The translations under genes and the position numbers were made by a program. Under the pieces are notes generated by a model, which had not been told where the DNA came from, searched no databases, and worked only from the letters and a program-made list of their open reading frames with translations. A stretch of DNA of 4,124 bases from Escherichia coli (GTDB lineage Bacteria; Pseudomonadota; Gammaproteobacteria; Enterobacterales; Enterobacteriaceae). Location of the stretch: NCBI RefSeq assembly GCF_003334785.1, contig NZ_QOWV01000049.1. One strand, written 5' to 3'. This document shows positions 535-4,124 of the stretch, piece by piece; within the stretch, counting starts at the first letter, position 1; every line of letters begins with the position of its first letter.

Positions 535-1119
535 ATGATGAAACCACGTTCTTCTTATTCAAAAACAGCATTCATTCTTTTATTTTCTGTTTTCCTAGTA
601 GCGGCAGTGACAAAAGCAAAAAGCTCGCTTCCCGATATCACCCTGGAACAGGCAAAAGAAATTAATGCTGATAACACCGTTATTTTCCTTTTCCGCCATG
701 GAGAACGTTGCGACCGTTCAGATATGCCCTGCTATTCGGATAAGAGCGGAATCACTATTACCGGTACAGAGAAAGCACAGCAGGAAGGTATTAAGTTCGC
801 AACAATCTTCAGTGAATATGATATTTACTCCAGCAATGCAGTAAGAACCATACAAACTGCAAAATTCTTCTCCGGTAAAGAACCCGTCGTTATGGACAGT
901 TTATCAGACTGCAATAATGATCTTTATAAGACGCTTGAATCAATCGCAAGAGAATCTCATAAAAGGAACATAGTAATAATGACACATAATCATTGTTTAT
1001 CATTTCTGGCCAGAGATAGGCTCGGCAAGAAATTCAAACCGGCGTACCTTGATGCCCTGATCATGCATTACGATGGCACCCGGCTCATACTTGACGGAAA
1101 ATACAACAAAGAGGCATAG
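535..1119 (+). CDS. ais: Secreted histidine-phosphatase-superfamily protein, a paralog of Ais/PmrG (lipopolysaccharide core heptose(II)-phosphate phosphatase)
   Basis: The 194-aa ORF has an N-terminal signal-like segment (MMKPRSSYSKTAFILLFSVFLVAAVTKA). It carries the catalytic RHG motif in FLFRHGERCDRS. Long blocks match my recollection of E. coli Ais: DKSGITITGT, YSSNAVRTIQ, NIVIMTHNHCL, FKPAYLDALIMH, LDG. I estimate about 45-50% identity by eye, so this is a divergent paralog rather than the chromosomal ais allele. The SD is poor and ATG 538 is an alternative start. Confidence 0.85.
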   Translation: MMKPRSSYSKTAFILLFSVFLVAAVTKAKSSLPDITLEQAKEINADNTVIFLFRHGERCDRSDMPCYSDKSGITITGTEKAQQEGIKFATIFSEYDIYSSNAVRTIQTAKFFSGKEPVVMDSLSDCNNDLYKTLESIARESHKRNIVIMTHNHCLSFLARDRLGKKFKPAYLDALIMHYDGTRLILDGKYNKEA

Positions 1120-1513: not shown

Positions 1514-1669
1514 ATGAACCGTATTATACCTGCGGGGTGTCTTGCCGCCCTTTTTCTGGCTGGCTGCAACTCCCCTTCTCAGAATACTCCTGTTCCGCGT
1601 AACTACGGTGCTGCCTCTGATGTGGCGGTTAACGCTTGTCGCGTGGTATCAGACCTTTGCCACTGCTAA
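1514..1669 (+). CDS. Short lipoprotein-leader ORF (51 aa), probably the 5' fragment of a lipoprotein gene
   Basis: ATG 1514 is preceded by AGGA (1504-1507) at 6-nt spacing. The translation is MNRIIPAGCLAALFLAGCNSPSQNTPVPRNYGAASDVAVNACRVVSDLCHC*. It has a positively charged n-region, a hydrophobic core and lipobox L-A-G-C (Cys18). It falls below the ORF-track length cut-off and overlaps the 5' end of the 409-codon ORF in another frame. Confidence 0.45.
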   Translation: MNRIIPAGCLAALFLAGCNSPSQNTPVPRNYGAASDVAVNACRVVSDLCHC

Positions 1670-2771
1670 CCAGCGTCTGGCAGAGCTGGCTGACAGAGCT
1701 CCAGCTGTAACTTCAATGTCATCACTTGGGGAAGTTGGCGATACTGATTTATTTAGTGCTGTTATGGGGGCATACAAGACTCAATTGCAGAATTCAACTT
1801 ATACCCCACCTTTAGGTACTATAACTTCAGCAGACGAACAACTACTTTCAAAAACAAGCACGCCACAAGATGCTTTAATCAAGCCCACAGAGAAGTTTGG
1901 GCAATGGCTTACGAACAATATTGCCACCGAGTGGACTGATTCGGGTACAAGTAGCAATCAAGTTAATCCACTGATAAAAATGAAAAATATTGGTGATAAA
2001 ACTATGGTCGCTGCAGAGGGTATTTGGATTACTTATACATCTGCTAGAGTTATTACTTCAGGAACTGGGAGTTCTATATTTGGTAAATTCATAGATTTGA
2101 CGACAAGTGCTATTTCAACACTAAATGCCTTACTTGAGGCCTTAGCGCCCCCCGTATACTTTCTGTTACTACTGCTGTTTTGTGCAGGATTCTCTTTATC
2201 TATTTATTTACCATTTATTCCGTTTATTTTCTGGATGACTGGGATTGGTAACTGGGTCATTAGTGTATTAATCGGATGTACAGCTGGACCTCTGTGGGGG
2301 GCAACTCATCTAGGCACATCACAGGACAGAGGGAGTCGTGCTGCCTACGGTTATATATATTTAATAGACAGCATGATAAGACCACCTATCATGGTTTTCG
2401 GATTCTTTTTTGCCTCTGTAGCCATTATAGCAATAGGTACTATATTAAACTTTTTATTCGGTGCTGCACTGACCAATGTACAAATAAGTTCATTTACAGG
2501 TATATTTAGCCTCGCAGGTTTCTTACTTCTTTATGCTAGAAGTTGCACAACAATTGTAGCCGCAGCATTTGCCTTACAAGCATACCTCCCAGACCATGTA
2601 ATTAATTTCCTAGGAGGACGTGATGGTGTAAACACGCTTGGGAATATGGCTGGTTCAATAAAAGAGATTTTTGCTGGCAGCAATAGAAACATAAGACACG
2701 CACCTAATATAAGAGAGGAGCAAATTAAAAGGATGAATAACGACAACAATAAGGATGGAATAAAGGGATAA
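1542..2771 (+). CDS. traY: DotA/TraY-family (IncI / type IVB conjugation) integral membrane protein, N-terminally truncated. Only the C-terminal roughly half of a full-length protein is present, and the 5' about 150 nt are probably not native coding sequence.
   Basis: The 409-codon open frame begins at a TTG with no SD. The first ATG (1620) also lacks an SD. From about residue 45 onward the sequence looks protein-like, with a Ser/Thr-rich soluble region. At least 4-5 hydrophobic spans follow: VYFLLLLLFCAGFSLSIYLPFIPFIFW, NWVISVLIGCTAGPLWGA, PPIMVFGFFFASVAIIAIGTILNFLFGAAL and FTGIFSLAGFLLLYARSCTTIVAAAFAL. The ORF ends in a charged tail. The architecture and the PLWGATHL...RGS..AYGY..L......RPPIMVFG region resemble my memory of the DotA/TraY family (TIGR04346). 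The position just upstream of an ExcA-like gene fits IncI synteny. Full-length TraY proteins are much longer, about 700+ aa. Confidence 0.55.
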   Translation: MPPFFWLAATPLLRILLFRVTTVLPLMWRLTLVAWYQTFATANQRLAELADRAPAVTSMSSLGEVGDTDLFSAVMGAYKTQLQNSTYTPPLGTITSADEQLLSKTSTPQDALIKPTEKFGQWLTNNIATEWTDSGTSSNQVNPLIKMKNIGDKTMVAAEGIWITYTSARVITSGTGSSIFGKFIDLTTSAISTLNALLEALAPPVYFLLLLLFCAGFSLSIYLPFIPFIFWMTGIGNWVISVLIGCTAGPLWGATHLGTSQDRGSRAAYGYIYLIDSMIRPPIMVFGFFFASVAIIAIGTILNFLFGAALTNVQISSFTGIFSLAGFLLLYARSCTTIVAAAFALQAYLPDHVINFLGGRDGVNTLGNMAGSIKEIFAGSNRNIRHAPNIREEQIKRMNNDNNKDGIKG

Positions 2772-2787
2772 TAACTTAATATATGAC

Positions 2788-2816
2788 TTGCCATATACAC
2801 TTGGAGAGATTAAAAT
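2788..2816 (+). promoter_or_regulatory. Sigma70-type promoter candidate for the 204-aa ORF
   Basis: TTGCCA (2788-2793), then exactly 17 nt, then TAAAAT (2811-2816). Each hexamer matches the consensus at 5 of 6 positions. The candidate lies in the 75-nt gap after the traY-like stop, about 20 nt upstream of GGAGG (2833-2837) and ATG 2847. Confidence 0.5.
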
Positions 2817-2846
2817 ATCAAAAAGTGTTTATGGAGGTCATATATA

Positions 2847-3461
2847 ATGATTGGAGCATATGCAAACCGTGGCGGCACCCATTCTAAAAAAGAAACATGC
2901 GTGATCGCATTCGCGCTTTTCTACATTATTTTCGCCGTCCCATTACTAATCATTTGGAATACACCTACCAGTTGGGGACTAGCAGTAATCCCAACTGGAT
3001 TCCTACTATACTCCGGATATAAAAATGGAAGAAAGAAAAGAGCAATCGTAAATAATATCCTAGAACAGATAAAGACTGAATATCATGATGCATTCGATCC
3101 AGACCCATCTTACGAACACAAATCAATATCATCATTATATTTCGGAATTGATATCAAAAAAGGTACTGCGTTATATATTCGGCTTTACCCCAATAAAACA
3201 TTAGATGTCATTGGCATTGATATTGATAATTTTACACGGACAGTAGTAAGAGAAAACTGTATGGAAATACACACAAAGTATGTCAATATGCCAATGTTAG
3301 AATTGCCTATTGGTGTTAACTCTGCTCGTTCTATTGCAAACACATTGCACGCAATGGCAAGTCGAGGATATGATTACCCTGTCGACTTTCCTCGCCTGAT
3401 TCAGGAAAAGCGTAAGGAGTGGGAGCAGATTGCAGGTATGCCTGTAGCTGAAGTATTTTAA
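2847..3461 (+). CDS. Two-TM inner-membrane protein with a cytoplasmic C-terminal domain. It is a candidate ExcA-like entry-exclusion protein, assigned by position only.
   Basis: The 204-aa ORF has a strong SD (GGAGG, 9 nt before the ATG), its own promoter candidate and its own terminator. Two hydrophobic helices are present, CVIAFALFYIIFAVPLLIIW and WGLAVIPTGFLLYSGY. Basic residues flank them (HSKKE before, KNGRKKR after), so both termini are predicted to be cytoplasmic. A soluble domain of about 140 aa follows. In IncI1 plasmids the gene immediately 3' of traY is excA. I cannot confirm sequence similarity to ExcA. Confidence 0.8.
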   Translation: MIGAYANRGGTHSKKETCVIAFALFYIIFAVPLLIIWNTPTSWGLAVIPTGFLLYSGYKNGRKKRAIVNNILEQIKTEYHDAFDPDPSYEHKSISSLYFGIDIKKGTALYIRLYPNKTLDVIGIDIDNFTRTVVRENCMEIHTKYVNMPMLELPIGVNSARSIANTLHAMASRGYDYPVDFPRLIQEKRKEWEQIAGMPVAEVF

Positions 3462-3481
3462 GATAAGCAGCCTCCATAACT

Positions 3482-3510
3482 GCCGGTTCAGATGAGCCGG
3501 CTTTTGTTTG
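3482..3510 (+). terminator. Rho-independent terminator after the 204-aa ORF
   Basis: Stem GCCGGUU (3482-3488) pairs with AGCCGGC (3495-3501). It is 7 bp including one G-U pair, with a 6-nt loop, and is followed by TTTTGTTTG (3502-3510). It begins 21 nt after the TAA stop. Confidence 0.75.
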
Positions 3511-3558
3511 CAACAACACATAGCTTATGCCGTATTAAATAAACCCAAGGACCTATTT

Positions 3559-3753
3559 ATGGCAAAAACAAAACAGGAATGGTTATATCAGTTACGTCGC
3601 TGTTCCAGCTTAAAGACACTTGAGAAAATTATTGCTAAAAACCAGGGCACTTTGGCCTCAGATAAAATAGAAGCATTCAACTCTGCAGTTGATCATCGCC
3701 TTGCGGAACTGACAATGAACAAATTGTACGACAAAGTACCAGCTTCTGTCTAG
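3559..3753 (+). CDS. hha: Hha/YmoA-family haemolysin-expression-modulating protein (H-NS co-regulator), with the C-terminus shortened by TAG at the conserved Trp position
   Basis: The translation [64 protein letters not shown] matches Hha/YmoA (...RLRRC.TIDTLERVIEKNKYELSD.E...[22 protein letters not shown]..VW....) across its full length. An AAGGA SD (3546-3550) lies 8 nt before ATG 3559. The track's TTG 3508 start lies inside the upstream terminator and is rejected. Confidence 0.9.
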   Translation: [64 protein letters not shown]

Positions 3754-3772
3754 AAGTACGTAAAATAACGCC

Positions 3773-3805
3773 AACAAAAAGAGCAGGAAATCCCACACCT
3801 GCTCT
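3773..3805 (-). terminator. Rho-independent terminator oriented for minus-strand transcription
   Basis: An 8-bp stem pairs AGAGCAGG (3780-3787) with CCTGCTCT (3798-3805) around a 10-nt loop. The U-run lies on the minus strand only: the complement of CAAAA (3775-3779) plus flanking bases reads TTTTGTTGG. On the + strand the hairpin is followed by CATTCC, which is not U-rich. Confidence 0.5.
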
Positions 3806-3976
3806 CATTCCTGAATAAACATATCCAATATATTCCAATGCGAAGAAATAATCTCCGTAGAAACACCCATGAGAAAAATATCATATGGGAGAAAATCGCA
3901 ATTATCACAGCCAGTGCATTCATTATTTTCGCTGTGCTCTGGCATTAATTATTTTCAACATAAAAAGGAAAAAATA

Positions 3977-4047
3977 ATGAATCTGGTAGACGCCTTTGTC
4001 AAAAAAGTAATATCCGGGCCATATAAAGAATATGGAAAATGGTGGAT
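3977..4047 (+). pseudogene. 5' stub of a small hypothetical gene interrupted by the IS insertion
   Basis: ATG 3977 is preceded by AAGGA (3965-3969) and encodes MNLVDAFVKKVISGPYKEYGKWWI. The reading frame then runs straight into the IS terminal inverted repeat at 4048. The remaining residues of the track ORF (…EPPRVSWRVFYL*) are IS sequence. The part of the track ORF upstream of 3977 has no SD and looks non-coding. Confidence 0.35.
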
Positions 4048-4124
4048 TGAACCGCCCCGGGTTTCCTGGAGAGTGTTTTATCTGTGAACTCAGGCTGCCA
4101 GATCATCGTTTCCGATGGAAGCAT
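4048..4124 (-). mobile_element. IS3-family insertion sequence, IS629/IS1203/IS3411-like. The right (IRR) end is present and the element continues beyond the window.
   Basis: Positions 4048-4124, TGAACCGCCCCGGGTTTCCTGGAGAGTGTTTTATCTGTGAACTCAGGCTGCCAGATCATCGTTTCCGATGGAAGCAT, are the reverse complement of the IS629 right end as I remember it (...TATGCTTCCATCGGAAACGATGATCTGGCAGCCTGAGTTCACAGATAAAACACTCTCCAGGAAACCCGGGGCGGTTCA). The terminal TGAACCGCCCCGGG is the characteristic IS3-group inverted repeat, with a 5'-TG terminus. Confidence 0.85.
4090..4124 (-). CDS. IS3-family transposase OrfB, extreme C-terminus (partial, continues off the window)
   Basis: The minus strand reads (t)at gct tcc atc gga aac gat gat ctg gca gcc tga, giving ...YASIGNDDLAA*. 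The stop is the complement of 4090-4092. This matches the remembered C-terminal end of the IS629 OrfB. Confidence 0.75.
   Translation of the reverse strand, partial: ASIGNDDLAA

Follow-up and report, generated by a model that had tools for sequence, protein, structure and literature searches.

Background

The closest described counterparts of the gene analysed here are the Hha proteins of IncI1 plasmids (WP_001140544.1 and WP_001140545.1; pESBL and others), whose gene lies in the order traY, excA, hha and an ORF of 58 aa. Annotations of intact IncI plasmids give this gene 210 bp, 69 aa and the name 'hemolysin expression modulator Hha'. In a TnSeq study of the IncI1 plasmid pESBL, the Hha/YmoA ORF beside ExcA was classed as weakly essential for maintenance (0.59, versus 0.40 for non-essential; the value for transfer was 0.02). 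The same table (PMC4288162, Table 2) lists hp28, a small ORF next to it, as essential for maintenance too, and the authors explain neither result. These data suggest that hha has a fitness role on an intact IncI1 plasmid. The chromosomal Hha of E. coli and Salmonella and the YmoA of Yersinia belong to the same fold family, and E. coli always has chromosomal hha and ydgT (PMC4864382). A distant family member is Cnu/YdgT (2jqt), which keeps the C-terminal Trp and has insertions near helix 4. Accessory hha paralogues with inactivating lesions are known as well, for example the hha2 of E. coli ED1a, which has a 3-bp deletion (PMC4864382), and the hha of plasmid pEF-1, which has a W8* change, the core hha and ydgT remaining.

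The present study concerns a window of 4,124 nucleotides from E. coli (the whole stretch of DNA that was analysed, contig NZ_QOWV01000049.1), in which a plasmid-type hha gene is cut short by a TAG codon. The locus, the Shine-Dalgarno (SD) sequence and the flanks are those of the IncI1-plasmid gene, and the product matches WP_001140544.1 at all of its 64 positions; however, the window copy lacks the terminal WKYVK (W65*), has lost the tra genes and is bounded by an insertion sequence (IS), whereas the reference copies reside on intact conjugative plasmids. With chromosomal Hha and YmoA the alignment is ungapped over residues 4-69, the identity to Hha is about 54% in structure superposition, and C18, E25, D48 and W68 of Hha are conserved in the ancestral form. 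Unlike chromosomal hha, the window gene is plasmid-borne with excA upstream, and its product is 3 residues shorter at the N-terminus and misses the final 5 residues. Its lesion differs in position and type from those of pEF-1 and ED1a, since just the last five residues are lost. The locus does not correspond to the TomB-Hha toxin-antitoxin pair: the upstream gene is excA, and no YbaJ/TomB Pfam match was found among the window proteins.

Results

A premature amber codon at the conserved tryptophan

The gene starts with an ATG at 3559 and encodes a product of 64 aa. Its 3' end reads GAC AAA GTA CCA GCT TCT GTC TAG and continues with AAG TAC GTA AAA TAA (TAA at 3766-3768), exactly as given in a preliminary description of this DNA, where the TAG was said to occupy the place of a conserved Trp and to be followed in frame by four sense codons and a TAA. 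Judged by profile and structure-database matches, the product is an unambiguous member of the Hha/YmoA family. It scores 87.1 bits against the Pfam profile HHA (PF05321; cut-off 25) and the TGG-restored form scores 94.3 bits, the truncation costing the final two positions of the profile; against the PDB chains of Hha and YmoA (1jw2, 2mw2, 4icg and 2k5s) the E-value is about 1e-22, the match to the Cnu/YdgT chain 2jqt being much weaker (1e-7). The stop position equals W68 of Hha (1jw2, 2mw2, 4icg) and W63 of YmoA (2k5s) in ungapped alignment, and in Cnu/YdgT (2jqt) its counterpart, reached with short gaps, is the conserved Trp close to the C-terminal end.

The nearest full-length alleles are found on the IncFIB/IncI plasmids pMTY9754_IncFIB-I (L002) and p399-2 (L003). 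Over 210 bp they differ from the window at two positions only, 3741 (CCG>CCA, synonymous) and 3752 (TGG>TAG), and their protein is that of the window plus WKYVK (…ASVWKYVK, 69 aa), with W at codon 65 and the same TAA. Since the nearest full-length alleles share the protein, W65 and TAA, the match between Trp and stop is more than a chance resemblance. TGG stands at codon 65 in all four intact plasmids compared. Among homologues from a database of 5.8 billion clusters, Trp65 is invariant in 147 of 147, and none of the 147 ends before the normal C-terminus of the family (position 69), an end at position 64 being seen in this allele alone. By comparison with these relatives, the TAG of this hha is the derived state. 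The earlier proposal of an ancestral end ...ASVWKYVK, shortened by five residues through a single G-to-A change, is thereby confirmed, and homologues that end naturally at this place, which would have told against it, were absent from the 147. It was also right that the rest of the gene including its SD sequence is intact: the region upstream of the gene (3480-3558) is identical to that of a full-length relative.

Positions 3741 and 3752 are at the same time the sole positions in 3337-4047 where the window departs from three relatives alike (L001, L002 and L004). Both lineage-private changes are G>A and lie 11 bp apart; they might represent one mutational event (e.g. clustered cytosine deamination on the other strand) or a coincidence. 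The features of the window are collected in Table 1.

Table 1. Features of the window discussed in the text
Feature	Positions	Strand	Basis
Histidine-phosphatase family gene of the IncI1 backbone, intact, 194 aa, secreted, RHG motif	535..1119	+	Pfam His_Phos_1, 35 bits; annotation of relatives
Fusion of the traH 5' end (start 1514; lipoprotein signal MNRIIPAGCLAALFLAGC) to the 3' part (last third) of traY; junction at about 1627-1631	1514..2771	+	Split matches
excA, IncI1 surface-exclusion protein, intact, 204 aa, one substitution (A82 vs V) relative to L001	2847..3461	+	Annotation of relatives; comparison
Terminator-like hairpin with T-run between excA and hha	3482..3511	+	Sequence scan
SD sequence AAGGA, 7 nt before the ATG, unchanged	3547..3551	+	Read directly; identical in relative
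Truncated hha, Hha/YmoA-family gene of IncI1-plasmid type, 64 codons and premature TAG	3559..3753	+	ORF; translation; Pfam; PDB-chain matches
Second lineage-private G>A, CCG>CCA, synonymous at Pro61, 11 bp upstream of the nonsense change	3741	+	Comparison with relatives
Premature amber codon TAG; A at base 3752, where every full-length relative has G (TGG, Trp65)	3751..3753	+	Relatives; contigs
Orphaned ancestral tail, codons for KYVK and the original TAA	3754..3768	+	Same as the final 15 bases of the 210-bp hha CDS in L001-L003
Inverted repeat GAGCAGG...CCTGCTC just 3' of hha, T-run on the minus strand	3782..3805		Sequence; hairpin scan
5' part of the conserved 58-aa hypothetical gene found 3' of hha on IncI1 plasmids, cut by the IS	3977..4047	+	Feature 5351-5527 of L001 maps to 3977 onward
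End of an IS3-family insertion sequence (TGAACCGCCCCGGG...; TGAACCGCCCCGGGTTTCCTGGAGA), cutting the 58-aa ORF	4048..4124		L006 and L007 run on into rve/HTH_Tnp_1 transposase ORFs

Signals around the gene

No sigma-70-like site was found by the promoter scan on the plus strand between the terminator-like hairpin after excA and hha; functional relatives equally lack such a site there, so this has no bearing on the truncation. On the minus strand, a promoter-like sequence TAGACA-N18-TACAAT (3752-3723) reaches 10 of 12 matches, and the nonsense mutation supplies the first T of its -35 hexamer, the ancestral G giving CAGACA with one match fewer. Such promoter-like sites number 3, with 2.3 expected by chance. 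The inverted repeat just 3' of hha looks, by its sequence, like a terminator for transcription arriving from the right, where intact plasmids carry dqlB and hypothetical genes and the window has the IS. A scan of the whole window against Rfam gave no matches.

An IS-bounded remnant of the IncI1 transfer region

By megablast against PLSDB and all complete E. coli genomes, no record spans the whole window. The part at 1630-4050 is 99.5% identical to the segment traY(3')-excA-hha-hypothetical gene of many IncI1-type conjugative plasmids, and the part at 133-1631 is 99.5% identical to another part of the IncI1 backbone, which comprises the 3' end of traF, the histidine-phosphatase gene and the start of traH. 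The split of the matches at about 1630 thus indicates a deletion from traH to traY, which removed most of the tra cluster and left a fusion covered by the mechanical ORFs 1542-2771 and 1620-2771 (383/409 aa). This traH/traY junction occurs in no complete plasmid or E. coli genome of the collections searched. The order traY, excA, hha and 58-aa ORF is preserved at a DNA identity of at least 99% (99.5% over 1630-4050), and the backbone identity stops at 4047-4050. With the deletion at about 1630 and the IS at 4048, the hha of the window stands outside any intact transfer region (traH..trbC). This context, an IS-bounded remnant of IncI1 backbone with a large tra deletion, had been overlooked in the preliminary description, which had correctly pointed to AT-rich genes beside hha (GC 0.36-0.41). 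Because excA and the histidine-phosphatase gene are intact in the same remnant, its decay is not uniform. The phosphatase may resemble the Ais/PmrG-type phosphatases of the LPS core.

In one metagenome scaffold (L005) the remnant, cut on its left by IS100, adjoins this element and a type VI secretion cluster of a kind found on E. coli plasmids of 80-190 kb, and the histidine-phosphatase gene is also cut. The IS end at the right starts 2 bp earlier there (10487-10512 of the scaffold) and reads ...CCGGAAATCC..., which suggests another IS3-family copy or an exchange between IS elements at almost the same site. The cut phosphatase gene together with the altered right IS end indicates that erosion by IS elements is ongoing. 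Positions 1-7319 of this scaffold (tssB/C/F/G, vgrG) are 100% identical to the ~94 kb E. coli plasmid NZ_AP022179.1 and 99.9% identical to the ~81 kb NZ_CP069544.1; neither plasmid is among the matches to the probe for the TAG allele described below.

Distribution of the TAG allele

A probe of 49 nt across codon 65 was run against the PLSDB plasmids and the complete E. coli genomes. No 100% match to the TAG form was found among 181 matching PLSDB plasmids or 119 matching complete E. coli genomes; the nearest of them deviate by a single base, that of the TGG, so the complete plasmids and genomes, which the preliminary description had suggested comparing at this codon, all carry TGG. The TAG allele was not found in a scan of GTDB species representatives either.

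The exact 64-aa protein is, however, present on 24 contigs in a collection of 15 billion proteins, under E. coli accessions at NCBI (EEZ6075009.1, HAH2816709.1, HAH8835904.1 and HAM3705258.1), and in 57 indexed blocks of public assemblies from isolates and gut metagenomes; the remnant occurs in samples from at least 10 studies. In 45 of the 57 blocks the contigs measure 2-5 kb, the size to be anticipated when repeats flank a fragment on both sides. TAG is read in each of the 13 retrieved contigs that extend to codon 65 (from ENA, Logan, NCBI and JGI), and this agreement of independently assembled contigs amounts in substance to the confirmation of the base that had earlier been considered necessary. 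Of the ten TAG contigs retrieved first, nine match the window at 100% identity along 2.5-4.0 kb; the tenth, the scaffold L005, deviates only at the IS end. The arrangement of histidine phosphatase, traH-traY fusion, excA and hha is common to 9 of the 10 contigs shown, namely those long enough. A look-up of the exact 383-aa fusion ORF led to this same family of contigs: wherever one extended as far as hha, the 64-aa form was present, and the combination of the traH/traY deletion with TGG was not found among them. An intermediate with CCA at 3741 and TGG was not found in the JGI metagenomes, in which only the TAG contig QZMB01001618.1 matched. The nonsense mutation is thus a single event, fixed in one element that has spread recently. 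In combination, the TAG and the traH/traY junction offer a handy marker for following this plasmid fragment in gut metagenomes.

Consequences for the protein

P0017, a full-length allele of the IncI1 type that shares 96% identity with the restored protein, was modelled with AlphaFold; the model has a mean pLDDT of 72.5 and helices at 5-13, 18-29, 34-53 and 62-66 (helix 4), and it superposes on the Hha of the H-NS complex 4icg with a TM-score of 0.87-0.90 and an rmsd of 1.5 Å. The truncation removes W65-K69 (WKYVK), that is, the second half of the short helix 4, and in the model of the 64-aa form helices 1-3 are kept (pLDDT 76-86) and helix 4 is absent, which is no measure of stability. The 64-aa product hence departs from the four-helix architecture in which helix 4 carries the invariant Trp.

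The residues that contact H-NS are kept, C15, E22 and D45 corresponding to C18, E25 and D48 of Hha by ungapped alignment with an offset of +3. E25 and C18 of Hha have roles in H-NS binding. As for the third of them, D48 of Hha is essential for this binding (PMC4519777). With all H-NS-binding residues retained, partial activity of the 64-aa protein is possible.

Discussion

The reading that we favour, with a probability of roughly 0.7, is that a redundant plasmid hha in a decayed IncI1 remnant was hit by a nonsense mutation and is now a young pseudogene or a strong hypomorph, and that the truncation is neither programmed nor regulatory. The mutation, its derived state, its spread in a single lineage and the decayed context are all directly visible in the sequences compared. 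According to this reading, TGG>TAG at the family-invariant Trp65 would have arisen once, in the hha of the excA-hha unit between traY and trbA, in plasmids that keep only a ~4 kb IS-bounded piece of the IncI1 transfer region. Losing the invariant aromatic residue would destabilise or inactivate the protein, and the loss could be tolerated because chromosomal hha and ydgT would give the same activity and because the plasmid genes that this copy presumably silenced together with H-NS, likely tra, are gone. It is in this sense that we infer a loss of function and a relaxed selection. The preliminary description had offered recent inactivation among several readings, and the IS-bounded IncI1 remnant with its large tra deletion favours that choice.

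The role indicated for hha on pESBL may have lapsed here, the tra cluster being deleted; this would fit relaxed selection only if the deleted tra region is the reason why hha matters. The plasmid pEF-1 of E. fergusonii (L004, NZ_CP137856.1; 4060-4269) has acquired a nonsense codon of its own in the same IncI1 hha, W8* (TGG>TGA). It is a conjugative IncI plasmid with all tra genes annotated as intact, and its annotation passes over the locus tag of hha, in keeping with a call as a pseudogene, so the accessory hha can be lost on intact plasmids too.

What has to be weighed most carefully against a damaged gene is a functional short variant, in which the three-helix 64-aa protein would still bind the N-terminal domain of H-NS and act as a normal, attenuated or altered (e.g. 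dominant-negative) co-silencer. We regard this as unlikely, although a number of observations speak for it: D45, the counterpart of the D48 of Hha, is kept together with C15 and E22, the Pfam score is still 87 bits, the model of the truncated form preserves helices 1-3 (pLDDT 76-86), and isolates as well as gut metagenomes carry the allele widely. It has also been reported that an engineered Hha cut short at K62 keeps a biofilm phenotype on overexpression. Against these stands the strong constraint which can be argued from a Trp invariant in 147 of 147 homologues and from the lack of any natural member without the C-terminal helix among them, and the strongest case for functional damage is an evolutionary one. 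Moreover, the allele is confined to one clonal, decayed element, and no selection signature can be read from the sequence since all copies are identical. The wide occurrence of the remnant means that the allele is at least not harmful, and it could be neutral or useful. The further step, that the truncation is no neutral decay but gives a stable three-helix Hha which, lacking helix 4, docks on H-NS, alters its filaments or bridging as an attenuated or dominant-negative co-silencer and so helped the IS-bounded fragment to spread through the E. coli of many human-gut samples, appears quite improbable.

A different way to rescue the gene would be read-through of the TAG, by an amber-suppressor tRNA or by leaky termination, to give useful amounts of a 69-aa protein; suppression was already raised in the preliminary description. 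It is true that the frame runs on undamaged through four sense codons to the original TAA, but an intact tail is to be expected of a recent mutation, the remnant being 100% identical among contigs, and neither a tRNA or suppressor in the window nor an Rfam match lends the idea support. Amber suppressors are laboratory alleles, and the basal read-through of UAG in E. coli is about 1% or less; we consider this rescue very improbable. A programmed read-through or recoding site was rejected, the TAG being found in one clonal element only, with TGG in the relatives and no Rfam match. One could also suppose that the G>A change was selected at the DNA level, the better minus-strand promoter-like site at 3752-3723 driving antisense transcription, with a predicted start near 3715, into hha and excA. 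Its 10 of 12 matches, one more than with the ancestral G, agree with such a selection, whereas the 18-nt spacer is suboptimal and sites of this kind (3 against 2.3) are about as frequent as chance predicts; for the latter reason the improved match is better treated as a probable coincidence, and selection for it is hardly credible. Finally, the absence of TAG from complete plasmid records might point to a sequencing or assembly artefact with G as the true base, but the occurrence of TAG in 13 independently assembled contigs (ENA, Logan, NCBI and JGI) and of the 64-aa protein under at least four NCBI accessions leaves next to no room for an error, and we take the artefact as refuted by the independent assemblies.

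With the young pseudogene or hypomorph as the preferred reading, the finding has little importance beyond annotation: public databases already contain the family, the locus and even this precise 64-aa protein, and the lesion is an ordinary nonsense mutation. Database entries present the 64-aa ORF as an ordinary 'hemolysin expression modulator Hha'; it would better be flagged as a truncated and probably non-functional allele within a decayed IncI1 remnant. It also provides a natural experiment, in which the 64-aa form set against the TGG-restored 69-aa form asks if the stability of Hha or its binding to H-NS depends on helix 4 and the invariant Trp. The W8* allele of pEF-1, which came to notice by chance, is the only other nonsense allele that we noticed in this gene.
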